From positions 106,144 to 170,143 of the forward strand of contig JALHOP010000010.1 in NCBI GenBank assembly GCA_022842935.1: 64,000 nt of DNA. Direction: 5' to 3'. Of the stretch, positions 730 through 51,475 are shown piece by piece (within the stretch, counting starts at the first letter, position 1; each line of letters opens with the position of its first letter). This stretch comes from Myxococcota bacterium (GTDB lineage: Bacteria; Myxococcota; XYA12-FULL-58-9; JALHOP01). The position numbers and the translations under genes were made by a program. The notes under the pieces were generated by a model. It saw nothing but the letters and a program-made list of their open reading frames with translations, did not search any database and was not told the origin of the DNA.

Positions 730-2325
730 ATGCCCTCGAGCACCCAAGCGAAGGTCGTGACGCTTCCGTCCGCGAAGCTCCCCTTGCCCATCGTGCTCGG
801 TGCAGTGGGCCTGACCCTCATCACGGTGATGATGCTCTTGGTGAGCGACGGCAACCTCGTCGTCGCACTCGTGCCGACCATACTCCTTGGCGTGGTCTGG
901 TACATGACCGTCAAACCGGTAGCGCACTCACTCATCGTCCTGTTTGGCGTGTGCCTGCTCATGCACAACCCCGGTATGCGCCCCCACGATGGCAACTGGG
1001 ACGGTCCGCTCCAGCCGGTTGGCCGGCTGCTGTATGACAACCTGCGCAACATCGTTGGCGTCGACGCGCTGCGCTTCAACGCGATCGAGGCGGTGCTCTT
1101 CTTTCTTGCACTCCTCATTCTCTTACGCTGGCTCGTTGGCAGTCGCATCGACAATCCCGAAGGCACGAGCGCCGCGCGGCCTTTGAAGCTCGCTCTCGGG
1201 CTGTGCTTGGTGACGCTCTTCGCATGGATCGCTTGGGGCATCGCGCGCGGCGGTAACTCGCAGCAGATGCTGTGGCAGACCCGTCAGATCATGTGGGCCC
1301 CGCTCATGAGCGCTATGTTCATCCACGCATTCCGAACGCCCAAGTGGCACCGTGCGCTGGGTTTCATCATCATCGGTGTGGCCATCGTCCGCTGTCTCGA
1401 CGGCATTTACTTCTTCTACGGGATGGTGAAGCCGAGGGCGTTGTTCGTTGAATACAGCATCACCCACGAAGACTCGATGCTACTCATCACCACGGTGGTG
1501 ATGCTCGCGGCGATGATGCTCGAGCGTCCGACAAAGCGGACGCTGCTGACGGTCATGTCCATCTTCCCGATCATCGCTGTCGGACTGGTCGTGAACCACC
1601 GGCGGCTCGCCTACGTGTCGCTCGCGATGTCGCTCATCGCAGTCTTCCTTCTCATCAACGTGAATCTGCGTAGACGCATCATCCGATGGATGCTCATCGG
1701 CGCGCCGGTGCTCATCCTCTACGTTGGCGCGGGCGTTGCTGCGAAGGGTGAGTCGATCATTTTCTTCCCGATCCGCAGCCTGGTCTCGGTCGCCGACACC
1801 AAAAACGCGTCGAACCAGACGCGCGATATCGAGAATTACAATCTGCTCTACACCTATCGGGACGCGCCCCTGCTCGGACTCGGATTCGGGCACGAGTACA
1901 ACGAGGTCAGCGTCGCCTACGATATCTCGCACGCCATGCCGAACTACCGATACATCGCCCACAACAGCGTGTTGTGGCTCCTCATGTTGTGCGGAGGCAT
2001 TGGCTTTGCTGGCATGTGGCTCTACTACGTCGTTTCCATCTTCCTCGGCGCACGCGTCTACCGGCTCACGACCGACCCGGACATCGCCGTAGGTGCTCTC
2101 ACCTCGGTAGCCGCGGTGATCTGTTTCATCTTCCAGGCCTTCGGCGACATGGGCATGATCGGCTGGATGGGAGTCCTGCTCCTGTCAGCCGCAAACGCAG
2201 TGGTCGCGACCTCGGCGACGCGTGTCGGCGCTTGGAGCGATGTCGGCACCCCCGCACCGAAGGCGCAGGCCCACTCGAGCGGCGTGGAGTCGGAAGAGCC
2301 TCTACGCGCCGAGCAAATCGCCTAG
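730..2325 (+). CDS. Polytopic membrane protein of the O-antigen ligase / Wzy_C-like family (exopolysaccharide or O-antigen polymerase/ligase). The start is uncertain: the ORF opens at a TTG at 658, the first ATG is at 730.
   Basis: More than 10 predicted TM helices. A Wzy_C-type signature (IAHNSVLWLLMLCGGIGFAGMWLYYV) follows a large loop. Confidence 0.55.
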   Translation: MPSSTQAKVVTLPSAKLPLPIVLGAVGLTLITVMMLLVSDGNLVVALVPTILLGVVWYMTVKPVAHSLIVLFGVCLLMHNPGMRPHDGNWDGPLQPVGRLLYDNLRNIVGVDALRFNAIEAVLFFLALLILLRWLVGSRIDNPEGTSAARPLKLALGLCLVTLFAWIAWGIARGGNSQQMLWQTRQIMWAPLMSAMFIHAFRTPKWHRALGFIIIGVAIVRCLDGIYFFYGMVKPRALFVEYSITHEDSMLLITTVVMLAAMMLERPTKRTLLTVMSIFPIIAVGLVVNHRRLAYVSLAMSLIAVFLLINVNLRRRIIRWMLIGAPVLILYVGAGVAAKGESIIFFPIRSLVSVADTKNASNQTRDIENYNLLYTYRDAPLLGLGFGHEYNEVSVAYDISHAMPNYRYIAHNSVLWLLMLCGGIGFAGMWLYYVVSIFLGARVYRLTTDPDIAVGALTSVAAVICFIFQAFGDMGMIGWMGVLLLSAANAVVATSATRVGAWSDVGTPAPKAQAHSSGVESEEPLRAEQIA

Positions 2326-3719
2326 GCCGCAAGGACCTTGCGCACCAACCGCAGGTCTTCCACCAGGAGCTCGAACATCGCGTCGCGTGCGTCGTCGTCG
2401 GGAGCGCGCAAGATGGCCGCCGGGTGATAGCTCACGATCACATCGCCCGAAGGCGATGCAAGGCGTTGTCCGCGATCACGTGCAACGGTCACCGTCTTGC
2501 CGAGTAAGCTCTGGGCAGCAGAGGCACCGAGAGCAACGATGAGGTCGGGTTTGACCAAGCGAAGCTCGGCAAAGAGCCACGGCTTGCACGCCTCGATCTC
2601 GCCGCCGTCGGGCTTTTGATGCAGACGGCGCTTGCCCATGGGGCGCCACTTGAAGTGTTTGACCGCGTTGGTGACGTACACCTCGCTGCGCGCGATGCCG
2701 GCGGCAGCGAGCGCTTTGTCGAGCATCTTGCCAGCGGGGCCCACGAAGGGGTGCCCCTGTTTGTCTTCTTCGTCACCCGGTTGCTCGCCAACCAGCACGA
2801 CACGCGCGCCCCCGAGGCCCTCTCCAAACACTGTCTGGGTTGCGCTCTCGTGCAGCGGACAGGCGCGACATCGCTTCGAGGCCTCGCGCAGGACCTCGAG
2901 CGACGCGCCCTCGGGAACGAACGCGGCGGCCGAGCCGTTCGACGTGCTCTTCTTCACCATCTCCGCGGCCCTCCCCGACGCCTCGTGAACGAGCGTGGGG
3001 ATTAGGGCAGCCTCGGGCAAGGTCGCCCAGTGTTTCTTGGGCATCTCGCCGCGCATGTGGCCGACCTTCAAGCGGGCCGGATTGAAGATGGAGGCGTAGT
3101 AGGTGCGCCAGAGCTCCTCGAGCTCATCACCGCTGGGCGCGGCGGACCGTGGCACACCGTCGGTGAAGCGAGCCGTGACTCCATCCCAGCTCACCGAGCG
3201 ATCAGGCGTGAGGATCGCCCAACGCATGCTCGCGAAGCGCCCAACGAAGAACGGGGTCACGAGCGGGACGATGAGATGGTCGGGTCGGTGCCAGGCGATG
3301 TAGTGCGCCTCGGCATCGTCATCGCCACCAACGCGGCGAAACCGCACGAAGGCATGCATCTTGTGGGCGTCGCGATGCACTTCTTTGGAGAGAGCGCGCA
3401 AGCGATGCACGTCGGGGTCGAGCCCGTTGGCGAGCAACTCCGCCTCGCCGTGGGTGAGCCTGTGAAGCACCCGATAGAGCAGCCCCCACCGCGTGGCGCT
3501 TCGATGGTGCGCAACGTAGCGCGCTTCATCGAGAAAGCGTCGCGGGACCTTGAGAACCCCGGTCGGCGCCGGAACTGGCAAAGGAGGTCCGGAGAACAGA
3601 TCGCCCGACGCGGTCGGATCGCAGAACACCACGTCGCCGGGAAGCGCGCCCTCTGCCAAAAGACCGCGCGCCGCATCACGCCAACTCTCCCAGCTACCGT
3701 CGATAGCGACCGCGCGCAT
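2322..3719 (-). CDS. Fusion protein: an N-terminal DUF4130 domain ('probable DNA metabolism protein', TIGR03915-like) and a C-terminal uracil-DNA glycosylase family 4 domain (TIGR03914-like).
   Basis: C-terminal half: CRACPLHESATQTVFGEG...VLVGEQPGDEED...FVGPAGKMLD...VYVTNAVKH...SYHPAAILR, the motifs of UDG family 4. N-terminal half: WRTYYASIFNPARL-type DUF4130. The gene starts 2 nt after the radical SAM stop. Confidence 0.8.
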   Translation of the reverse strand: MRAVAIDGSWESWRDAARGLLAEGALPGDVVFCDPTASGDLFSGPPLPVPAPTGVLKVPRRFLDEARYVAHHRSATRWGLLYRVLHRLTHGEAELLANGLDPDVHRLRALSKEVHRDAHKMHAFVRFRRVGGDDDAEAHYIAWHRPDHLIVPLVTPFFVGRFASMRWAILTPDRSVSWDGVTARFTDGVPRSAAPSGDELEELWRTYYASIFNPARLKVGHMRGEMPKKHWATLPEAALIPTLVHEASGRAAEMVKKSTSNGSAAAFVPEGASLEVLREASKRCRACPLHESATQTVFGEGLGGARVVLVGEQPGDEEDKQGHPFVGPAGKMLDKALAAAGIARSEVYVTNAVKHFKWRPMGKRRLHQKPDGGEIEACKPWLFAELRLVKPDLIVALGASAAQSLLGKTVTVARDRGQRLASPSGDVIVSYHPAAILRAPDDDARDAMFELLVEDLRLVRKVLAA

Positions 3720-3721
3720 GC

Positions 3722-5035
3722 TCAGAGCTCACCGGTCAAGGCGCTAACCTTGGGAGCAAAAAGAGGCAGCTGTTCGGACTTCGCGCTCACCATGAGTCGC
3801 AGCCTGTCGCTATCGATAAAGCGCGTCGCGGCGTTGTGATCGGCGGTGACGACGAACGGCAATGTCCGCGTCAGCGGAACCCGCAAGCGTCGCAGATCGG
3901 CGGTCGTGATGCCGCGAAACCTACGCGCCGCGACAATACGCTCGACGTTGCGCGCGCCGAGGCCCGGGACGCGCAAGAGCAGCTCGCGCGATGCCCGGTT
4001 GATATCGAGGGGGAACATGGCGCGGTGGCGCAGCGCCCAGGCGAGCTTCGGGTCGATTGCGAGGTCGAGGTTGGGCTCCTCAGGGGTTGTGATCTCAGCC
4101 GCGCTGAATCCGTAAAAGCGGATGAGCCAATCGGCCTGATAGAGTCGATGCTCGCGCACCAAGGGCGGCGCTTGTCCCGGAAGCCCCGGAGATGCGTCGG
4201 GGATCGGGCTAAAGGCTGAATAGTAGACGCGACGAAGCTTGTAGCCGGTGTAGAGCGAGGTGGCGGTCTCCAAAATGGTCGCGTCGGTGCTCGCAGTGGC
4301 TCCGACGATCATCTGCGTGCTCTGCCCCGCCGGCGCAAACCGCCGCGCCTTGTGGGCGAGCCGCGTCACGCGCGGGTTCTTGCGACTCTCGGCGCGCTCG
4401 GCTTTCACTGCGTCGCAGCCATCCCGGATCTCGCGCATGGCGGTGGTCACGTCACTCACCCGCTTGGCTGGAGCGAGGGCGTCGAGGTCGCCTTGGGTTG
4501 GCAGCTCGATGTTGGCGCTCAGGCGGTCGGCCCACGTGCCTGCCGCGCGAAGAGACTCCGCCGAGGCCCCTGGCACCGCCTTGAGATGGATGTAACCGTT
4601 GAAACGGTGCTGCTCACGCAGGCAGCGCGCGACAGCGGTGAGCTGCTCCATGGTGTAGTCGACGTCGCGAATGATGCCCGACGAAAGAAACAGGCCCTCG
4701 ATGTAGTTGCGTCGGTAAAACGCGAGGGTGAGGTTCACGACCTCGTCGATGGCAAAACGCGCACGCTCGACGTTACTCGAGACACGATTCACGCAGTATT
4801 TGCAGTCGTAGATGCAGTAGTTCGTGAGCAGCAGCTTGAGCAAAGAAATGCATCGGCCGTCGGGCGTGTAGCTGTGGCAAATCCCCACCCCGGTGGTGCT
4901 GCCGAGCCCGTCGCGCGTCCCGGACCGCCGTGCGCCACTGCTCGCACATGATGCGTCGTACTTTGCCGCATCTGCGAGGATTTTTAGCTTCTGTTGGACT
5001 TGCACAGCGAACGCCCTTGCGAGCCCATACTGCAC
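3722..5035 (-). CDS. Putative DNA modification/repair radical SAM protein (TIGR03916-like, partner of UDG-family/DUF4130 proteins).
   Basis: CxxxCxxC cluster (NYCIYDCKYC). N-terminal KLKILADAAKYDASCASSG is typical of this family. The ORF opens with GTG at 5035; an in-frame GTG at 5005 would give a family-typical N-terminus. Confidence 0.8.
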   Translation of the reverse strand: MQYGLARAFAVQVQQKLKILADAAKYDASCASSGARRSGTRDGLGSTTGVGICHSYTPDGRCISLLKLLLTNYCIYDCKYCVNRVSSNVERARFAIDEVVNLTLAFYRRNYIEGLFLSSGIIRDVDYTMEQLTAVARCLREQHRFNGYIHLKAVPGASAESLRAAGTWADRLSANIELPTQGDLDALAPAKRVSDVTTAMREIRDGCDAVKAERAESRKNPRVTRLAHKARRFAPAGQSTQMIVGATASTDATILETATSLYTGYKLRRVYYSAFSPIPDASPGLPGQAPPLVREHRLYQADWLIRFYGFSAAEITTPEEPNLDLAIDPKLAWALRHRAMFPLDINRASRELLLRVPGLGARNVERIVAARRFRGITTADLRRLRVPLTRTLPFVVTADHNAATRFIDSDRLRLMVSAKSEQLPLFAPKVSALTGEL

Positions 5036-5410: not shown

Positions 5411-6826
5411 TTACTTCAACCACTCAGAGTGGACTGGGCCGGCCTTTACGTTGTCACGGCGAACGTACGTATGAGCGCCAAACGCGTCACGCTGCGCCTG
5501 GGTGAGGTTCTGCGGCAGGTCGGCGCTTCGCACCCCATCGAACCAGGTCAGCGAAGCCGCGAAAGCCGGCATCGCAATGCCCTCCGCCATCGACCGGCCG
5601 ACGAGTGCGCGCCACTGCGGAGCGGCTTTCCGCACATCACCGCCGAGGCTTGCGTCCGCGACGAGGTTGCGCATCTCTTTCTGCTTACCGAAAGCCTGCA
5701 TGATCGTGTCGAGCAGCTTCGCTCTGATGATGCAGCCTCCTTTCCAAATGCGCGCGATCTCACGCCGATCGATATCCCACGTGTAAGCCTGGGACGCCGC
5801 GTGGATGAGCTCCATCCCCTGAGCGTAGGCGCAGACCTTCGCGGCGAGGAGGCCGTCGTGGACCTCGGCAATACGCGCTTCGCGCTCGCCAGCCGGAACC
5901 TTGCCGCGCGGCGGATCCTCGAAGGATCTCGCCATCGCCACCCTGCTGTCTTTTTGGGACGAAATCACACGCGCATCGAGCGCCGCCGCGATGCTCGGGA
6001 TCGCGACCCCCAGCTCGAGCGCTGCTTCCACCGTCCAGCGACCGGTCCCTTTCTGGCCTGCTTGATCGAGGACGAGGTCCACGAGGTGCTTTTGGGTGTC
6101 GCGGTCGCGCACGCGAAAGATCTTCGCCGTGATCTCGATGAGGAACGACTGCAGCGGACCTTGGTTCCAGCGATCGAAAACATCGGCAATCGCGTCGTTG
6201 TCGAGCCCGATGCCGCGACGCAAAACGTCGTAGGCCTCGGCGATGAGCTGCATATCGGCGTATTCGATGCCGTTGTGGACCATCTTGGTGAAGTGGCCGG
6301 CACCGTCAGGGCCGCAATACGTGACACAGGGGCCCGACTCGGTCTTGGCGGCGACGCCCTCGAGCAGCGGCTTCAAGTGCTCGTACGCCTCGCGCGCTCC
6401 TCCCGGCATGAGGGAGGGCCCGCGCCGCGCACCTTCCTCGCCGCCCGACACACCCATCCCCACGAAGCGAAGCCCCTTCTCGGCGAGCGCTCGCTCGCGA
6501 CGCCGCGTGTCGGTGTAGAGCGAGTTGCCACCGTCGATGATGACATCGCCCTTGTCGAGATGAGCCGAGAGCTGCTCGGCTACGGAGTCGACCGCCTTGC
6601 CAGCCGTCACCATGACGAGAATGCGCCGCGGCTTCTCGAGCGCTGCGACCAGCCCCGCGATGTCTTTTGCGTCGACAAAGCCGGGGTGCTCGGCGAGGAA
6701 CTTCTCCTGCTTGTCGCGCTCGAGGTTCCATACCGCGACCCGTGCCCCATGGTCGGCGAAGTTCAGTGCGAGATTGGCGCCCATGACGCCGAGACCAACG
6801 ACTCCAAAGTTTGCCTGAGCTGGCAT
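5411..6826 (-). CDS. gnd: 6-phosphogluconate dehydrogenase (decarboxylating), NADP-dependent.
   Basis: MPAQANFGVVGLGVMGANLALN... is a full-length Gnd. ATG at 6826, 2 nt after the pgl stop. Confidence 0.95.
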   Translation of the reverse strand: MPAQANFGVVGLGVMGANLALNFADHGARVAVWNLERDKQEKFLAEHPGFVDAKDIAGLVAALEKPRRILVMVTAGKAVDSVAEQLSAHLDKGDVIIDGGNSLYTDTRRRERALAEKGLRFVGMGVSGGEEGARRGPSLMPGGAREAYEHLKPLLEGVAAKTESGPCVTYCGPDGAGHFTKMVHNGIEYADMQLIAEAYDVLRRGIGLDNDAIADVFDRWNQGPLQSFLIEITAKIFRVRDRDTQKHLVDLVLDQAGQKGTGRWTVEAALELGVAIPSIAAALDARVISSQKDSRVAMARSFEDPPRGKVPAGEREARIAEVHDGLLAAKVCAYAQGMELIHAASQAYTWDIDRREIARIWKGGCIIRAKLLDTIMQAFGKQKEMRNLVADASLGGDVRKAAPQWRALVGRSMAEGIAMPAFAASLTWFDGVRSADLPQNLTQAQRDAFGAHTYVRRDNVKAGPVHSEWLK

Positions 6827-28372: not shown

Positions 28373-29341
28373 ATGGGCGCAATCAAAGACTTCATCAGGC
28401 ACAACTACCGGCACTTCAACGCGGCAGCAGTCGTCGACGCGGCTGAAGGTTGGGTGAAGCATCTCGAGGGTGGCGGCAAGATGCTGCTCACCATGGGCGG
28501 GGCCATGAGTACCGCCGAGATGGGCATTTCGATCGCCGAGCTCATCCGCAAAGACAAGGTGCATGCCATCTCGTGCACTGGCGCCAACCTCGAAGAAGAC
28601 ATTTTCAACCTGGTCGCCAACAAAGAATACCGCCGCGTCCCCCACTGGCGTGCGCTCTCGGCCGAAGATGAGCAAGAGCTGTATGACGGCGGCTACAACC
28701 GCGTCACCGACACCTGCATCCCCGAAGACGAAGCGATGCGTAAGGTCGAGAAGCCCCTCATCGAGCTTTGGCAGGAGTGCGACAGAAACAAAGAGCGCTT
28801 GTTCCCGTACGAGTTCTTCTATCGCTTGCTCAAGCGCGGGATGCTCAAGAGCGAATACCAAATCGATCCCAAAAATTCGTGGCTACTCGCCGCTGCGGAA
28901 AAGAACCTCCCGATCATCACCCCCGGCTGGGAAGACTCGACCTGCGCCAACTTTTTCGTGGCGCGCTACATCGAGAAGAAGTTCAGCTCGTTGCTCACCA
29001 TGAAGAGCGGCGTCGAACAGATGGAGTTCTTCTACCGCTGGTACATGGAGACCAACGCTTCGGCGTCGATTGGGTTCTTCCAGATCGGCGGCGGCATCTC
29101 CGGTGACTTCCCGATCTGCGTGGTCCCGATGATCCGCCAAGACTTGAAGCACGACGCCAAGTTGTGGGGCTACTTCTGCCAGATTAGCGAAGCCGCGACG
29201 TCCTACGGCAGCTACAGCGGAGCAACGCCCAACGAGAAGATCACCTGGGGCAAGCTTGCGGTGGACACGCCGAAATTCGTCATCGAGAGTGACGCCACCA
29301 TCGTCTTCCCGCTGATCGCCCAGTACCTGCTCGACGGCTAG
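28373..29341 (+). CDS. Deoxyhypusine synthase-like protein (homospermidine synthase-like, NAD-dependent aminobutyl transferase family).
   Basis: TMGGAMSTAEMG...SCTGANLEEDIFN and the overall length match the DHS fold. Confidence 0.8.
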   Translation: MGAIKDFIRHNYRHFNAAAVVDAAEGWVKHLEGGGKMLLTMGGAMSTAEMGISIAELIRKDKVHAISCTGANLEEDIFNLVANKEYRRVPHWRALSAEDEQELYDGGYNRVTDTCIPEDEAMRKVEKPLIELWQECDRNKERLFPYEFFYRLLKRGMLKSEYQIDPKNSWLLAAAEKNLPIITPGWEDSTCANFFVARYIEKKFSSLLTMKSGVEQMEFFYRWYMETNASASIGFFQIGGGISGDFPICVVPMIRQDLKHDAKLWGYFCQISEAATSYGSYSGATPNEKITWGKLAVDTPKFVIESDATIVFPLIAQYLLDG

Positions 29342-45705: not shown

Positions 45706-45900
45706 ATGGCCGAGCAGAAGAAAGAGCGTGAAGTCGTGGTCGTGGGCTCGAAGCTCAAGGACGCCGTGAAGGCGGCTGGTTGCCAGAGCTCGGGCGACCT
45801 GGTCGAAGCAGTCTCGGAGAAGGTCCACGACATGCTCATCGCGGCGGTCGAGCGCGCCAAGCAAAACGGCCGCGCTACGGTTCGTCCTTACGACCTCTAA
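45706..45900 (+). CDS. Small histone-fold-like protein (DUF1931-like), 64 aa.
   Basis: VVVVGSKLKDAVKAAG...VEAVSEKVHDMLIAAVERAKQNGRATVRPYDL. Strong RBS (CAGGAGATTTGAACG-ATG). Confidence 0.5.
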   Translation: MAEQKKEREVVVVGSKLKDAVKAAGCQSSGDLVEAVSEKVHDMLIAAVERAKQNGRATVRPYDL

Positions 45901-45973: not shown

Positions 45974-45997
45974 AAGGCCTCCCCCGAGGCCTTTTTT
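45974..45997 (+). terminator. Rho-independent terminator (AAGGCCTC-CCCC-GAGGCCTT followed by T6).
   Basis: The hairpin plus U-tract follows the small DUF1931-like gene and abuts the qor stop. Confidence 0.6.
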
Positions 45998-46976
45998 ACG
46001 TTTTTGTCCAATCGATGACGAGCTTACCGAAGGTATCGTTCCGTTCGAGGCGTTGATGCGCTTCGCGGATGGCGCTTGGTGCGACGAGACTGTCGACGAC
46101 TGGTCGCAAGCGACCGGTGGCGAGATCAGGAACGACGTGCTGCTCGACCGCTCGAGCGAGCAAGATTTTTTCGGCGACTGGGCGCGTCCTCAGAACCGTG
46201 CCGCGCAGGATGAGCCGTTTGCTGAGGAGCCGGCCGAGGTCGAGCTCGGCCGTAGAACCGGCAGTGAGGCCAATGAGAACGTGACGTCCGCGATCGCGTA
46301 GCAGGGCCAGCGACGGTCGCACCATCGCCCCCCCGACGAGGTCAATGACGACGTCGACTCCTTCTGGGGCGAGCTGCTTCACGGCGTTCGGCCATTGCGC
46401 GTCACTCACGACACCGTCGACGTCACCGAGAAGCTTTGCGCGCGAGAGCTTGTCTGCGCTGCGCGATGTACCAATGACTCGCGCCCCCGCGCGGTTTGCG
46501 AGTTGCAGAGCCGCGGTGCCGACACCGCTACCCACGGCGTGGATGAGAACGAGCTCGCCACGCTCGAGGGCGCCCTCGGTGAACAACCCGTCGTAGGCTG
46601 TCATGAATGCCTCCGGCACTGCGGCGGCATGCTGCAAGGACATGCCCGCGGGGGCGCGCATGACTTCGTCGGCGGGCACGATGATTTGCTCGGCGTAGGC
46701 GCCACCACCGACGATCCCCATCACGCTCTCGCCGACCGTCAGACCGGTGTTGCCGCCCACTTCATCGATGACCCCGGCGTACTCGACGCCGAGAACATCG
46801 GTCGGTGACCCCTTGGGTGGGGGATAGAGTCCGCGGCGTTGGAGCAGGTCGACCCGGTTCAGCCCGCTGCCATGGACGCGAACGCGAACCTCGCCACGGC
46901 CGGGCGCGGGAGTTGGCCGCTCCTCGAGTCGCAACACGTCAACGTCGCCGGGCCTGTCGAAGACGATGGCGCGCAT
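45996..46976 (-). CDS. NADPH:quinone oxidoreductase (zinc-free MDR family).
   Basis: MRAIVFDRPGDVDVLRLEE...; C-terminal GxGxxG Rossmann fold. Confidence 0.85.
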   Translation of the reverse strand: MRAIVFDRPGDVDVLRLEERPTPAPGRGEVRVRVHGSGLNRVDLLQRRGLYPPPKGSPTDVLGVEYAGVIDEVGGNTGLTVGESVMGIVGGGAYAEQIIVPADEVMRAPAGMSLQHAAAVPEAFMTAYDGLFTEGALERGELVLIHAVGSGVGTAALQLANRAGARVIGTSRSADKLSRAKLLGDVDGVVSDAQWPNAVKQLAPEGVDVVIDLVGGAMVRPSLALLRDRGRHVLIGLTAGSTAELDLGRLLSKRLILRGTVLRTRPVAEKILLARAVEQHVVPDLATGRLRPVVDSLVAPSAIREAHQRLERNDTFGKLVIDWTKT

Positions 46977-46979
46977 GCG

Positions 46980-47801
46980 TTACAGACCTGTCCGCGCGAG
47001 GACACCTTGCAGCTCGCCGAAGCCCCGCAGTCGGTAGCCATAACGAGGGTTCTCCGGCCAAGCACCGCCGCCTCCGAGCAACAACGTCACGCCATGCTTC
47101 TCGCAGGCTGCGCCAACGCTTTCGACTTGCCGCTCCAAGTGCGACGCATCCGCAGAGATCGGGGAGGCCGAGAGCGCCACCATGCGAACGCTGCCCCCAG
47201 AGACAAAGCGTGTGAGCTCGGTGGTGGGGGTGTTGCGTCCTGCCCACCGGGGGAGCCAACCAGCCTCGCGCAGGCAAAGCTCGAGCAACGACAACCCGAA
47301 CGTATGCTGGTCACCCTCGGCTGTCGCGAGGAGACAGCGCGGGGCGTCGTCGCCGACCGGGAGAGATTCCGCAAGCATCGTCAGGCCGCGCTGCAGCACT
47401 TCACTCGCGAGATGCTCCTCGACAATCGTCATGCGGCCTTCCGTCCAGCGCTGACCCGCGGCATGGAGTACCGGACCGATCGCGTCGGCTACGCGCCACC
47501 AGCAGCCGCGCGCGGCGCGCTCGGTGAGTAACGCCGCTTGGACTTCGTAAGCGACGGCGTCGCTCGTGAGCAGGTCGAGCCAACGGTCGACATGCTCGGC
47601 GTGCGTCGGCATGCCCTTGTCGAGCCCGTTGCGGCGAGCGAACGCAGTCACTGTCGAGCGTGCGAAGCGCCGGTGCCCGCCAAGCGTCTTCACGCACTCG
47701 AGCTCGCCACTCTCGGTCCAGCGCTTTACCGTCGACGGTCCCACCCCGAGGGTGCTCGCGACCTCGCCGCTGGTAAGGAGCTCCGCAGAGTCGTCACCCA
47801 T
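46980..47801 (-). CDS. CarH/LitR-type light-responsive MerR-family regulator with a C-terminal adenosylcobalamin-binding domain.
   Basis: MerR HTH (LTSGEVASTLGVGPSTVKRWTESGEL). W-x9-EH photochemistry motif (WTEGRMTIVEEH). B12 DxHxxG (GDQHTFG), SxL (VALSAS) and GG (LLLGGGG) motifs. Confidence 0.8.
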   Translation of the reverse strand: MGDDSAELLTSGEVASTLGVGPSTVKRWTESGELECVKTLGGHRRFARSTVTAFARRNGLDKGMPTHAEHVDRWLDLLTSDAVAYEVQAALLTERAARGCWWRVADAIGPVLHAAGQRWTEGRMTIVEEHLASEVLQRGLTMLAESLPVGDDAPRCLLATAEGDQHTFGLSLLELCLREAGWLPRWAGRNTPTTELTRFVSGGSVRMVALSASPISADASHLERQVESVGAACEKHGVTLLLGGGGAWPENPRYGYRLRGFGELQGVLARTGL

Positions 47802-47832
47802 GTTGCTTAAAGCTGGCCGTTTTGGGCGATTC

Positions 47833-47853
47833 TGTCAATCTTGGACGTTGACA
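47833..47853. promoter_or_regulatory. Inverted repeat TGTCAA-N9-TTGACA in the divergent promoter region between the carH-like gene and the epimerase gene.
   Basis: Perfect 6-bp arms, lying about 30-50 bp upstream of both start codons. It contains a TTGACA -35-like hexamer on each strand. Confidence 0.3.
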
Positions 47854-47882
47854 AAGCGGCCGAAACGCCTAGTTTTGGCCTC

Positions 47883-49367
47883 ATGCGCGTCGTCATCAGC
47901 GGTGCCACTGGTTTTGTTGGCCGAGCCCTCGTTCTGCGCCTCTTGCGCGATGGCCACAAGCTCACCGCCCTCGCCCGCTCGCCGGCTGCGGCGATCTCGC
48001 GACTCGGAGCTGACCTGCGGGTCGTCGACCTTGCAGACGACGCGGCGGTGCAAGAGGCGATGCGCGAGGCAGAAGCCATCATCAATCTCGCTGGCGAGTC
48101 GGTTGCACAGCGCTGGACCGCCAAGCGAAAAAGGGAGCTGCGTACGAGTCGGGTGGATAGCACGCGCAGGCTCGTCGACGCCGCCCAGAAGGCGGGCGCT
48201 AGGCCGCGTGTCTTCGTCTGCGCAAGCGCCATCGGCATCTACGGCGATACAGGCGACCGCACTGTCGACGAAACATCCGCTCCCGCGCACGACTTTCTTG
48301 CCGAGCTTTGCCGCGATTGGGAGGCCGAGGCGCGCAGCGCCGAGAATCTCGGTGCACGCGTCGCGCTCGTGCGCTTCGGTGTCGTCTTGGGTGACGGCGG
48401 TGGAGCCCTCGCCACCCTGTTACCGATGTTCAAGAGTGGGGTTGGGGGTAAGCTCGGTGACGGACGCCAGTGGTTTTCTTGGGTGCACTTGCAGGACGCG
48501 TGCGAAGTCGTCGCACAGGCATTGGTCGACGACCGCTATCGCGGCCCAATCAACGCGACCTCACCCAACCCCGTCACGAATGCTGAATTCACACGCACGC
48601 TAGGCCGCGTCCTCGGGCGCCCCACGGTCATCACGACGCCCAAGTTCGCGATACGCCTCGCGCTCGGTGAGGCCGCGACCGCCGTGCTTTCGTCGCAGCG
48701 CGTCCTGCCATCACGACTCGCCGAGCTCGGCTTCACGTTCGCGTATCCAGAGCTCGACGGTGCTCTGCGCGACCTGACCCACGCAGCTCCCACCGTCATG
48801 GTGCGTCCTATAGGACGCGAGCTGCCGAACCACCCGTACATTACTGCCAGACCTCCGACACACGTTCTGTCGCAGCGCACGGTCATTGACGCTCCCCTCG
48901 ACGAGGTCTTTCCATTCTTTGCCAAGGCGGAGAATCTGGGGGCGATCACACCGCCGAACATGGCGTTCACGATCACCACAGCGGGGCCGCTGACGATGGA
49001 GAAGAACCTCGTCATCGACTACCGCATTCGCATCGGGGGGCTGCCGCTACGATGGCGCACGGTCATCGAGGAGTGGCTGCCCGGCGAAGTGTTTACCGAC
49101 GCGCAGCATCGAGGCCCCTATCGGTCGTGGTTCCATGAGCACCGATTCCGCGCTGACGGGAACCGAACCATCATGGAAGACCAGGTTTGGTACGCCCTGC
49201 CCTTCGGTCCGCTGGGTCGCATCGTCAACGCGATTCAAGTGCGAGGAATGTTGCGGCGCATCTTCGAATACCGCGCCGGGCGCATCGCCTTACGTTTCGG
49301 CAAGAATCAGGCAAAGCAGACCCGCGCAACCGCGACGACGCTCTCCGCGAGCGCCGGCGTGTCGTAG
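47883..49367 (+). CDS. Fusion protein: NAD-dependent epimerase/dehydratase of the TIGR01777 (YfcH/DUF1731) type, plus a C-terminal SRPBCC (polyketide-cyclase/START-like) domain.
   Basis: N-terminal [12 protein letters not shown] Rossmann fold and a DUF1731-type tail ([14 protein letters not shown]). C-terminal ~150 aa resemble cyclase/dehydrase SRPBCC. Confidence 0.7.
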
Positions 49368-50215
49368 CCGCCCTCGAGGACGAACGCGACTGGAACGCGC
49401 CCGGCGCGGCGTAGAATACGATCCGCCATTGCGGCGAAGCCCTGCGTCGTGACCTCGCAACTCGCGAGCGGGTCGCGAGCGTGGGCATCGAAGCCGGCGC
49501 TGACGATGATGAGCTCAGGAGCGATGCGCTCGTAGAAGTCACCGAGCGCTTCATCGATAGCGGCCAGGAACTCGGCATCACCGCTGCCCGCGCGCACCGG
49601 ATGATTGAGCGTCGCACCGAGGCCCTCCTCCGCACCCCGCTCTTCACGCGCGCCGGTACCGGGGTAGAGGGGCCACTCGTGCACCGAGAAGTAGCCGACA
49701 GTCGGGTCGCGATAGAAGATGTCCTGCGTGCCGTTGCCGTGATGAACATCCCAGTCGATGATGAGCGTACGCTTCGCGGCCGCTCGAGCCGCGATGGCCA
49801 CGTTGTTGAACAGACAAAACCCCATCGGTGTGTTGGCAGTCGCGTGGTGTCCGGGGGGGCGCACCAGCACGAGTCCCCTCTGGGCTTCGCCATGCACAAG
49901 CCGCGTCGTGAGCTCGACAGTGGTACCGGCAGCGCGTCGGGCAATTTCGTACGAATCGCGCGTGACATAGGTGTCCGCGTCGATCGAGCCGCCACCGGCT
50001 AGCGCCATGCCTCGCACCATCTCGATATGCCTAGACGTGTGTACGGCGGCGAGCTCGGTGTCAGTCGCCGAGCGCGCCGCGACGTCCGTGAGATCGAGAC
50101 TGGCACGAGCCAGCGCCTCGTCGATGGCCACGACACGCTCAGGTCTCTCGGGATGGCCAAGCGGTCCGCGATGCCGGACATGACCAGGGTCGCGGGCCAA
50201 CAGAACAGGCGTCAC
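49307..50215 (-). CDS. Histone deacetylase-family (AcuC/AphA-like) deacetylase.
   Basis: [11 protein letters not shown] plus a zinc-ligand pattern. Confidence 0.85.
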
Positions 50216-50559
50216 GCCTTACCGCCGATGTTCAGACGGTCGAGCTCACGTCCGAGGCGCCCCGTGAGAGCCAAAAACAGCATTTTCCAATCCCCCAAGA
50301 AGGACCAGACGGGATAGGTGAAGGTCGCTGGTCGATTCTTCTCGATGGCAAAGTGCGACAGCCAGGCAAGGCCGTACGAGGCGACGAGCGCCGCCGGTAT
50401 CAGCGCCCAGCGTCGCGTAAGGAGCGCAAAGAGAAAGAGGGCGGCGCCGACCACCGTCCCGACGAAGTGGAAAACCCGCGTCGAGCCACGCGCGTGCTCA
50501 CCCAGGTAATACGGCCAAAACTCGCCAAAGCTCCCATAGCGCTTGCCCGACATGGACAT
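50212..50559 (-). CDS. DUF962 (Mpo1-like) membrane protein.
   Basis: [27 protein letters not shown] is typical of DUF962. Its stop overlaps the HDAC start. Confidence 0.7.
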
Positions 50560-50683
50560 GAGCCTAACCCCGTCCCTCGATGGTGTCGATCCAACCCCTA
50601 TCCCTGCGGGCAACGAACCCAATCCCGCGAGCATATCGCGTTGATCCGTTTGGCAATTGCTGCCGCAGCGCTATGTTGAAGTC

Positions 50684-51475
50684 ATGGGATTTCTGGAAGA
50701 AGCGATTCTCGAGCCTAGCAAGAAGCTCCCGGTCCTCGTCGATTTTTGGGCGCCATGGTGCGGTCCGTGTCGGACCCTCGGCCCTGTTCTCGACCGCGTC
50801 GCCGCAACCAATCGAGAGCGCTTCACGCTGCTCAAGGTCAACACGGACGAACACCAGGATATTGCCGCCCGCTTCCGGGTCCAGAGCATACCGGCGGTGA
50901 AGCTCTTCGATCAGGGGAAGGTCATCGCCGAGTTCGTTGGCGCACTGCCGGAGCGCCAAGTGCTAGCTTGGCTCGACCAAGTGCTGCCGAGTGACGAAGG
51001 TCGCGCGCTCACGGCCGCCAAGGAAGCGCTGCAGAAGGGAGACCGCCCCGCCGCTCTCGCCGCCCTGCATGGTCGGGTGCACGAAGACGCGAAGTCCGCG
51101 GAGGCGCGCGCCCTTTATGCTGCACTCGCCTACTTCGAGCACCACGACCATGCGCTCAAGCTCGCCGCCACGGTCCGTGAAGGCGACCTCGGGTTCGACA
51201 TCGCAAGCGCGGTGGTCGAGCTCGATGCGCTCGTCGGGGATGCGAGCGCCGAGGGCAAACCCGACGCGGTCAGCGCCTATCAGCGCGGTATCGCGAGCTT
51301 CAAGGTCGGCGACTTCGCCGCTGCGGCCGCCGCCTGGATCGAGTCCATGAAGCTCTCGCGCAAGGTGGCCAATGATGGCGCTAAGCGCGCTCTCATCGCC
51401 TTGTTCAAGCTACTCGGCGAACAAGATCCGGTGACCCTCGAGTACCGACGCGCCTTCGCTTCTGCGCTGTACTAA
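50684..51475 (+). CDS. Thioredoxin-domain co-chaperone (YbbN/CnoX-like) with a TPR-like C-terminus.
   Basis: WAPWCGPCR thioredoxin motif plus a helical C-terminal domain. Confidence 0.8.
   Translation: MGFLEEAILEPSKKLPVLVDFWAPWCGPCRTLGPVLDRVAATNRERFTLLKVNTDEHQDIAARFRVQSIPAVKLFDQGKVIAEFVGALPERQVLAWLDQVLPSDEGRALTAAKEALQKGDRPAALAALHGRVHEDAKSAEARALYAALAYFEHHDHALKLAATVREGDLGFDIASAVVELDALVGDASAEGKPDAVSAYQRGIASFKVGDFAAAAAAWIESMKLSRKVANDGAKRALIALFKLLGEQDPVTLEYRRAFASALY

Follow-up and report, generated by a model that had tools for sequence, protein, structure and literature searches.

Near the middle of the regulatory question addressed here stands an 81-bp intergenic region in the genome of a Myxococcota bacterium (assembly GCA_022842935.1, contig JALHOP010000010.1, positions 106,144 to 170,143; this 64,000-nucleotide stretch is hereafter the window, and coordinates count from its first letter). 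On one side lie a gene for a regulator with a predicted vitamin B12 sensor and a quinone oxidoreductase gene; on the other side is a gene that fuses a short-chain dehydrogenase/reductase (SDR) domain to an SRPBCC-like domain. From domain identities, signature residues, motif statistics and synteny we consider it probable, and hold with moderate confidence, that the regulator is an adenosylcobalamin (AdoCbl)-dependent photoreceptor repressor of the CtMerR type, acting on 9-bp repeats in two back-to-back promoters. The three open reading frames (ORFs), the B12 motifs and an inverted repeat, TGTCAA-N9-TTGACA, were all verified to be present in the window. The genes are:

45996-46976, minus strand: PIG3-family NAD(P)H quinone oxidoreductase (QOR), 326 residues; TIGR02824 322.8 bits (cut-off 296.8), with ADH_N and ADH_zinc_N domains
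46980-47801, minus strand: regulator, 273 residues, a BldC-like winged helix-turn-helix with a CarH-like AdoCbl-binding domain (CtMerR type), assigned from Pfam and NCBIfam models, PDB sequence matches and an AlphaFold2 model
47883-49367, plus strand: SDR39U1/TIGR01777 (DUF1731) NAD(P)-binding domain (residues 1-298) followed by a C-terminal SRPBCC-like domain (about residues 325-472)

The QOR gene has the same orientation as the regulator gene and starts 3 nt past its stop codon; because of this short gap the two are probably co-transcribed, in line with an earlier, sequence-based reading of this locus (the initial annotation). That reading was also right that the regulator gene faces the SDR-SRPBCC gene: the two ORFs are divergent, with the 81 bp (47802-47882) between them. 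The ORF list had placed the SDR start at a TTG (47841), which we rejected; homologues all begin MR(V/I) at ATG 47883, so this ATG is most likely the start. Carotenoid and photolyase genes were not found in the window, either by Pfam on about 50 ORFs or by tblastn, which bears out the earlier proposal of a regulon without carotenoid genes and distinct from the classical crt operon. A tblastn search of the window with homologues of photolyase, CMAS, DUF1365, amine oxidase, RudS and DUF1295 gave no match. An Rfam scan of all 64 kb was blank, and there is therefore no cobalamin riboswitch in the window.

Pfam finds HTH_17/MerR_1, B12-binding_2 and B12-binding domains in the regulator. Their layout, with the residue of interest relative to CarH of Thermus thermophilus (TtCarH), is as follows:

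47628-47780, minus strand: DNA-binding domain (DBD), residues 8-58, HTH_17/BldC type
47364-47603, minus strand: four-helix-bundle module with G116xxW119 and E129-H130; T120 stands at the TtCarH H132 position
47052-47339, minus strand: Rossmann B12-binding module with G163xxH166 (lower axial His), G188xxxP192, S211-A-S213 and G243-G244

The sensor motifs, from W119 to GG244, show no or almost no variation among 20 homologues (45-79% identity). The classic B12 motif is D/ExHx2G/P-x41-SxT/V-x22-27-GG (PMC9304148); the regulator has D164-Q-H166-T-F-G169, 41 residues, S211-A-S213, 29 residues and G243-G244, deviating in that the third position of the middle element is S, not T or V, and in that the last gap is 2 residues longer. 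The initial annotation had listed W-x9-EH, DxHxxG and GG as hallmarks, all of which are present and near-invariant among the homologues; the ‘SxL’ that it added to them is in fact SAS, invariant in the family, where canonical CarH has SxT/V (PMC9304148). It had also worried that the His/Trp motif might be misaligned: the adenosyl cap motif, W119-x9-E129-H130, is invariant in the 20 homologues and aligns to the matching residues of both TtCarH and CtMerR. Equally complete is the light-response signature GxxW, EH, GxxH and GxxxP, which separates photoreceptor cobalamin-binding domains (CBDs) from others (PMC11796333): here it reads G116-QR-W119, E129-H130, G163-DQ-H166 and G188-RNT-P192, again invariant or nearly so in the family. 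A CBD without this signature failed to bind AdoCbl (PMC11796333). By sequence, the closest solved relative is CtMerR (8jbs, E 3e-25), with TtCarH next (1.6e-9); the AlphaFold2 model (predicted local distance difference test score, pLDDT, 92) has full-length TtCarH and the CtMerR CBD as its top fold matches. The sequence thus supports the assignment of all hallmarks of an AdoCbl photoreceptor to this protein.

The DBD tells a different story from that of canonical CarH. With residues 1-66 alone as query, the best PDB match is the BldC-DNA complex 6ama (E 1.1e-10) and the second is the CtMerR DBD (residues 18-69, E 1.3e-9); the TtCarH DBD was not recovered at E<=0.01 in this search. BldC sits head-to-tail on 9-bp direct repeats, AATTXXXXC, with Arg30 reading the C-G pair (PMC5859096). 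An invariant K26-R27-W28 in the regulator aligns to T-R-W of BldC (VKRW against VTRW), which pairs Arg30 with R27, itself invariant in the 20 homologues. The canonical CarH recognition helix carries RxWERRY (PMC9304148), whereas the regulator has V-K-R-W-T-E-S-G. Among the profile models HTH_17 and HTH_BldC fit best; PF00376 (MerR) scores 28.0 against a cut-off of 28.2, the NCBIfam CarH equivalog 55 bits against 400, and NCBIfam HTH_BldC 60.3 bits, below its cut-off of 77. Because RxWERRY is lacking and the CarH equivalog score is so low, the regulator, CarH-like in its predicted working, is not a canonical CarH/LitR class I protein. Of the earlier CarH/LitR-type label, then, the B12 sensor half stands and the DBD half does not, the latter being of BldC/excisionase type. 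Since the protein departs from CarH in its DBD motif, in its repeat period (see below) and at H132, it belongs with CtMerR. A literature search retrieved no paper linking BldC-type domains with cobalamin photoreceptors.

CtMerR of Chloracidobacterium thermophilum (8JBS/8JBT) has a CBD that binds AdoCbl, photolyses in green light and passes from tetramer to monomer (PMC11796333); its DBD was described as different from that of CarH, ‘suggesting an alternative DNA-binding site’, and its DNA target and regulon are unreported (PMC11796333). It is the best solved match to our regulator over both DBD and CBD. The two have in common a DBD of the type …SVKRW…C(I/V)(K/R)TxGGHRRF, the four light signatures, the lack of His where TtCarH has H132 (CtMerR has Arg, our regulator Thr) and the CBD fold (template modelling score, TM, 0.71-0.73). 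They differ in that identity is about 27-30% and that CtMerR has 327 residues against 273 here.

The DNA site that such a DBD might read was sought in relatives. A family scan with one genome per species gave 296 relatives, and 80 loci were kept, from Myxococcota, Planctomycetota and Acidobacteriota metagenome-assembled genomes (MAGs); loci are cited below by L numbers. GACGATT occurs in 37 of 81 upstream regions as against 16 of 800 control windows, and iterative refinement led to a conserved upstream motif, TTGGaCGATTTA, built from 204 sites at the 80 loci. Spacing between same-strand sites is exactly 9 bp in 58 pairs, with every other spacing represented by at most 8 pairs; convergent sites peak at 10, 19, 28-29 and 38 bp, that is, as ‘>> <<’ quartets. 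Written as a 9-bp unit the motif is GATT-TRGA-C, or GATT-N4-C, the BldC form. It thus matches the BldC binding unit, and its occurrences are predicted regulator sites. The 11-bp period of CarH-type operators was not seen: the family repeats are 9 bp, though they too overlap the promoter spacer. In planctomycete loci L011, L013 and L020-L022 the motif forms direct repeats 21-22 bp apart (31 bp in L006), with no 9-bp tandems.

The protein collection did not contain CtMerR itself, and a relative 82% identical to its CBD stood in for it; two tandem sites, of 16.5 and 8.8 bits, immediately precede the start of this relative. The gene (L084:6530-6730) had been called without a DBD, at 227 residues; the ORF extends upstream over the DBD, and the full start is probably a GTG. 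Its divergent neighbours are a polyprenyl synthase gene and one for an unannotated 189-residue protein, unlike the QOR and SDR-SRPBCC genes of the window, and a second tandem motif pair lies at 6536/6545.

Scored with the family's position weight matrix (PWM), the intergenic region of the window contains these elements:

47813-47833, plus strand: left tandem pair, 9 bp apart, CTGGCCGTTTTG (47813, 6.5 bits) and TTGGGCGATTCT (47822, 12.6 bits), in the putative regulator-QOR promoter spacer
47833-47838, minus strand: TTGACA, 37 nt ahead of the regulator ATG, candidate -35 box for regulator-QOR transcription
47833-47853, no strand: perfect inverted repeat TGTCAA-N9-TTGACA, TGTCAATCTTGGACGTTGACA, read here as two divergent -35 hexamers
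47841-47852, plus strand: weak central motif match, TTGGACGTTGAC (6.3 bits)
47848-47853, plus strand: TTGACA, 35 nt ahead of ATG 47883, candidate -35 box for SDR-SRPBCC transcription
47852-47872, minus strand: right tandem pair, 9 bp apart, TCGGCCGCTTTG (47852, 5.5 bits) and CTAGGCGTTTCG (47861, 4.9 bits), in the putative SDR promoter spacer
47870-47875, plus strand: TAGTTT, a weak -10-like hexamer (putative), separated by 16 nt from TTGACA and by 7 nt from the ATG

There are, in other words, five sites of at least 4.9 bits within 60 bp: two mirror-oriented 9-bp pairs, which flank the inverted repeat exactly, and one central match. This is the sole 60-bp stretch in the 64 kb with four or more sites (background, 0.15 per 60 bp), and the PWM scan found no other strong motif cluster in the window. 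We considered the central match for a third operator element and discarded it, since neither L090 nor L092 conserves it; it is probably non-functional. TTGACA is the sigma-70 -35 consensus. It is enriched 19-fold upstream of family members, and in many family loci it is directly followed by two 9-bp repeats and then by a TAnnnT-like hexamer; the TAGTTT of the window is retained as TAGTTT or TAGGTT in L001, L089 and L090. Neither divergent gene has a Shine-Dalgarno-like sequence before it (47802-47882), and a -35 hexamer stands 34-37 nt before each start codon, a spacing also seen before the start of the CMAS operon opposite the regulator in L005 and L060. The missing Shine-Dalgarno sequences and the fixed distance together suggest that the regulator and SDR-fusion mRNAs are leaderless or nearly so.

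Relatives from the window's own clade, found through the SDR fusion and conserved in their wider synteny, provide a built-in control, since those that lack the regulator or its CBD separate promoter from operator elements:

L001: regulator present (79% identical); left repeats and TGTCAA kept; TTGACA kept, N9 with the window sequence; right repeats kept
L092: regulator present, frameshifted in a nanopore contig; left repeats and TGTCAA kept; TTGACA kept, N10 of different sequence; right repeats kept
L090: in-frame loss of the CBD, which leaves DBD and QOR joined in one protein; left repeats and TGTCAA kept; TTGACA kept, N10 of different sequence; right side without a PWM site of at least 4.5 bits
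L089: regulator absent; left repeats and TGTCAA lost; TTGACA kept; right repeats kept, with TAGTTT
L091: regulator absent; left repeats and TGTCAA lost; TTGACA kept; no right repeats

The left pair is thus kept in L001, L090 and L092 and gone from the regulator-less L089 and L091. TTGACAA is invariant across six aligned sequences, these last two included, and TTGACA stands 34-36 nt from the SDR ATG in the window, L088, L089, L090, L091, L092 and L001. In L088, a Polyangiaceae MAG with its regulator at a distance of about 5 kb, the design is the same and the sites are strong: a pair of 17.8 and 8.0 bits, TGTCAA abutting TTGACA (N0), and a pair of 14.3 and 17.6 bits, with TTGACA 35 nt from the ATG. 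Relatives differ in the gap between the hexamers (0, 9, 10 or 29 nt), and the spacer sequence is not conserved. Because TTGACA stays without the regulator at a fixed distance from the ATG, and because the spacing between hexamers is free, the hexamers act like parts of a promoter, and the repeats like elements tied to the regulator. Between the window and L001 the intergenic region is 90% identical, the coding sequences 76-78% and third codon positions 49-53%.

In L089 (2937-4001) and L091 (3018-4001) the QOR and SDR-fusion genes have become directly divergent, with synteny otherwise kept. The fusion in L090 (2738-3919, minus strand) joins a BldC-like DBD to QOR in 393 residues, with the junction ...AFAARNGLKGGSGA|RAIVFDKPG, while upstream tandem repeats and both hexamers remain and the SDR fusion is 72% identical to ours. 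Two readings offer themselves: a DNA-binding oxidoreductase that is blind to light, or an artefact of assembly, the contig being a Logan assembly of one sequencing run. Of the 80 loci, L001 alone has QOR together with the regulator, but QOR adjoins the SDR fusion throughout the window's clade, whether or not the regulator is there; the QOR link is clade-specific.

We envisage the following mechanism. In the dark, the regulator would bind AdoCbl and oligomerise, as a tetramer by analogy with CtMerR and TtCarH, and its DBDs would sit head-to-tail on tandem 9-bp repeats of the unit GATT-N4-C. The repeat pairs would fill the spacers between -35 and -10 of two promoters (47813-47833 for regulator-QOR, 47852-47872 for SDR-SRPBCC), with TGTCAA and TTGACA as the two -35 boxes and both mRNAs probably starting at or near their start codons. 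Light would break the cobalt-carbon bond, the oligomer would dissociate, and both promoters would fire. They would yield two oxidoreductases of NAD(P)H type, of which one would have a pocket for hydrophobic ligands. These enzymes probably handle photo-oxidised lipids, quinones or isoprenoids. Such a locus would be a minimal light regulon that lacks carotenoid genes and represents a variant of CarH-type control.

Two known systems can be set beside this scheme. With CarH/LitR class I (Thermus thermophilus, Myxococcus xanthus, Bacillus megaterium) the regulator shares the two-module AdoCbl domain, Wx9EH, D/ExHxxG and the full-length fold, as well as a predicted tandem direct-repeat operator overlapping the promoter, and dark repression with light induction would be expected of it; it differs in the BldC-like DBD without RxWERRY, the 9-bp rather than 11-bp repeats, the lack of an H132 equivalent and the predicted non-carotenoid targets. 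With BldC of Streptomyces (6AMA/6AMK; PMC5859096) it shares the DBD match, the C-G-reading Arg and the predicted 9-bp head-to-tail (A/G)ATT-N4-C sites; BldC, however, is a stand-alone protein of 68 residues with no sensor, whereas our regulator joins the domain to a predicted B12 photosensor, through which it would oligomerise.

The initial annotation had proposed instead that TGTCAA-N9-TTGACA is itself the operator, bound by a symmetric dimer of MerR/CarH type. The repeat certainly exists: its 6+6 arms are perfect and extend to 18-nt arms of 72% complementarity, it is the only match in 64 kb, none of 100 shuffles gave one, and the whole intergenic region is constrained. Both hexamers are kept in all four loci that retain the DBD (the window, L001, L090 and L092), and the left arm is gone where the regulator is absent, although loss of the left arm together with the regulator is predicted by both models. 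Yet the right arm, as TTGACAA, is invariant at its fixed distance from the ATG in L089 and L091, which have no regulator, and it is a -35 consensus; a BldC-type DBD binds direct repeats, not palindromes; and arm spacings of 0, 9, 10 and 29 nt with unconserved sequence are incompatible with a rigid dimer site, since a palindrome bound by a dimer would not tolerate such variation. A search for the repeat elsewhere, which had been suggested with the proposal, gave no second copy in the window; among the 80 loci the arm pair occurs only in the window's sequence, L001, L078 (N29) and L005 (N5, one mismatch); it is missing from 76 of 80, which share the other motif. We therefore regard the inverted repeat as real and unique, probably not the recognition element, and its role as a dimer operator as distinctly unlikely.

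Two further explanations concern the regulator rather than its site. It might bind cobalamin and be no light switch (a B12 or redox reporter with AerR/CrtJ-type logic), or it might be an activator that remodels the spacer in the manner of MerR. We think this improbable, if a shade less so than the palindrome operator. The sites do fall within the -35/-10 spacer, where MerR activators bind, T120 replaces H132 of TtCarH, and AerR is among the structural neighbours in the fold search; BldC, moreover, can act as activator and as repressor. Against these stand the complete light-response signature, without which a CBD did not bind AdoCbl (PMC11796333), the intact and invariant Wx9EH cap, neighbours that are photolyase and other light-stimulon genes rather than genes of B12 metabolism, and spacers of 16-18 nt, near optimal, as against 19-20 nt for MerR-activated promoters. 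That the locus is a decaying remnant, its regulator dispensable and its light regulon no longer working, is suggested by the loss of the regulator in L089 and L091 and the CBD deletion in L090; it seems very improbable to us, because the regulator gene of the window is intact with all invariant family residues, its product is 79% identical to that of L001 while third positions are 49% identical, which indicates purifying selection, and the intergenic region is 90% conserved.

Several points weigh against the AdoCbl-dependent repressor on 9-bp repeats that we prefer. The evidence for it is comparative and from predicted structures, and both the tetramer and the reach of four DBDs across pairs about 39 bp apart are assumptions. 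Four of the five window sites are weak (4.9-6.5 bits), and their scores are not fully independent, as the PWM was trained on family upstream regions that include the window's own. A strict sigma-70 scan of 47600-48050 gave no promoter and the -10 candidates, TAGTTT and AGCTTT, are poor, which leaves conserved spacing as the ground for the proposed promoters, transcription starts and leaderless mRNAs. Operator-like repeats persist in L089 without an adjacent regulator, pointing either to recent loss or to a regulator encoded elsewhere. Site architecture varies by clade, with planctomycete spacings of 21-22 or 31 bp set against 9-bp pairs; operator design would therefore be plastic and clade-dependent. 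Finally, H132 of TtCarH is the second His that forms the bis-His adduct of the light state, and T120 aligns to it, so that this second His is lacking here. We view this as a difference and no refutation, because CtMerR, with Arg at that position, is still light-responsive (PMC11796333).

The neighbourhood of the regulator across the 80 loci was surveyed by tblastn with reference proteins from annotated loci (a stop-to-stop ORF clustering of neighbours was dropped, as it produced chimeric clusters in high-GC DNA). Neighbour counts are:

SDR-SRPBCC fusion, divergent from the regulator, in three phyla: 22
CMAS: 36
amine oxidase: 38
DUF1365: 36
DUF1295: 24
RudS (DUF523+DUF1722): 17
photolyase: 15

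A planctomycete arrangement is Phr<-SDRfusion<-|->REG->RudS->DUF1295->CMAS->AmOx->DUF1365 (Phr, photolyase; REG, regulator; AmOx, amine oxidase), an acidobacterial one SDRfusion<-|->REG->Phr, and a myxobacterial one, from a Pfam-annotated example, CMAS operon<-|->REG. A search that started from the fusion showed it in four further settings: a carotenoid cluster with CrtC, a desaturase and a lycopene cyclase; a place next to RudS, where spacer repeats are also present; a position behind FolE that faces a different HTH_17/B12 regulator; and one that faces a CMAS operon. These are gene kinds known from light responses: the light-induced LitR regulon of Pseudomonas comprises photolyase, RudS, the furan-fatty-acid synthase UfaM, an SDR, a flavin adenine dinucleotide (FAD) oxidoreductase and FolE, and LitR-family regulons without crt genes were already known (PMC9758184, PMC11417400). 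LitR class II/III of Pseudomonas and Burkholderia thus resembles our family in having a non-carotenoid light stimulon with the same gene kinds flanking the regulator, and differs from it in canonical MerR DBDs, an incomplete B12 domain and other light sensing, for example through a LOV partner (PMC9758184, PMC11417400). In Streptomyces coelicolor, litQ adjoins litR, as our literature search confirmed; we take LitQ to be an oxidoreductase and draw no evidence from it. Searches for CarH in myxobacteria found none in Anaeromyxobacter dehalogenans (PMC9304148); the present regulator family is frequent in Anaeromyxobacteraceae MAGs.

A wider proposal, which strikes us as quite possible while falling a little short of probable, is that these regulators form an overlooked class of B12 photoreceptors across Myxococcota, Planctomycetota and Acidobacteriota, of which the present locus may be a minimal example. 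They would read DNA in the BldC manner, through a light-dissolvable oligomer with its domains head-to-tail on 9-bp repeats within promoter spacers, and would drive a conserved light stimulon of photolyase, RudS and an operon of furan-fatty-acid type. The SDR39U1-SRPBCC fusion would be its most tightly linked and least understood member, with a photoprotective role. The comparative data propose both a DNA site (a 9-bp BldC-type repeat in promoter spacers) and a regulon for this kind of receptor. If they are right, it would offer a green-light optogenetic switch with an operator orthogonal to that of CarH; the SDR39U1/TIGR01777 family, placed in a conserved context of light damage, would also have its function search narrowed.

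The N-terminal part of the fusion matches TIGR01777 in full, at 345.5 bits (cut-off 207.35), and DUF1731 at 70.2 bits. Its AlphaFold2 model (pLDDT 90, predicted TM score, pTM, 0.89; last 19 residues below pLDDT 50) has a TM of 0.89 to human SDR39U1 with NADPH (4b4o). Tyr120 has no Lys at +4 (YGDTG), which makes this an atypical SDR and, together with the C-terminal SRPBCC part, distinguishes it from the known TIGR01777/SDR39U1 proteins (4B4O, 3OH8, ThyD). The tentative SRPBCC assignment draws on a Polyketide_cyc2 score of 20.6 bits, below the cut-off of 27.4, on the run of beta-strands and long C-terminal helix in the model, which is what a helix-grip fold would lead one to expect, and on the record name of one homologue, ‘ligand-binding SRPBCC domain-containing protein’; invariant residues in this part include G411-P-Y413, W416, H418 and H420. 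The fusion had been called uncommon, which it is not: at least 120 full-length homologues of about 50% identity are among the matches listed, with 3449 matches at E<=1e-10. In 3oh8, from C. glutamicum, TIGR01777 matches residues 149-436, behind an N-terminal extension that we take to be SRPBCC, that is, the same two domains in the opposite order. We know of no substrate for any TIGR01777/SDR39U1 member, the human enzyme included. The NCBIfam ThyD model matches the fusion at 303.9 bits, below its cut-off of 400; the title of a paper ties Anabaena ThyD to high-light acclimation (PMC11711299).

Other genes of the window deserve brief mention. The SDR-SRPBCC gene shares a 61-bp 3' overlap (49307-49367) with a convergent histone-deacetylase-family gene (49307-50215, minus strand), and this overlap recurs in L089, L090, L091 and L092. 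Just past the latter gene, 50212-51475 holds an Mpo1-like (DUF962) 2-hydroxy-fatty-acid dioxygenase-family gene and a thioredoxin-TPR gene, both syntenic in L089 and L092, with the Mpo1-like gene also in L091; a tie to lipid or oxidative stress is possible. Matches to the regulator-family motif at 50328 (10.1 bits) and 50507 lie inside the Mpo1-like coding sequence (50212-50634). Between an aminotransferase gene and the QOR gene, 45706-45900 (plus strand) encodes a 64-residue histone-fold protein that matches DUF1931 (9qt0, E 5.6e-10) and chains of 8cmp and 8fvx (deposited as CBFD_NFYB_HMF histone-fold), structures that we take for bacterial histones like Bd0055 of Bdellovibrio; a gene for 63-64 residues occupies the equivalent position in L089-L091. 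Farther off, at 2322-5035 (minus strand), a gene for a DUF4130 plus uracil-DNA-glycosylase-superfamily protein adjoins one for a 437-residue protein with a weak HHH_3 match, and the two look like a putative DNA repair or modification pair. At 28373-29341 (plus strand) this bacterial genome carries a deoxyhypusine-synthase-family gene (PF01916, E 1.8e-42).

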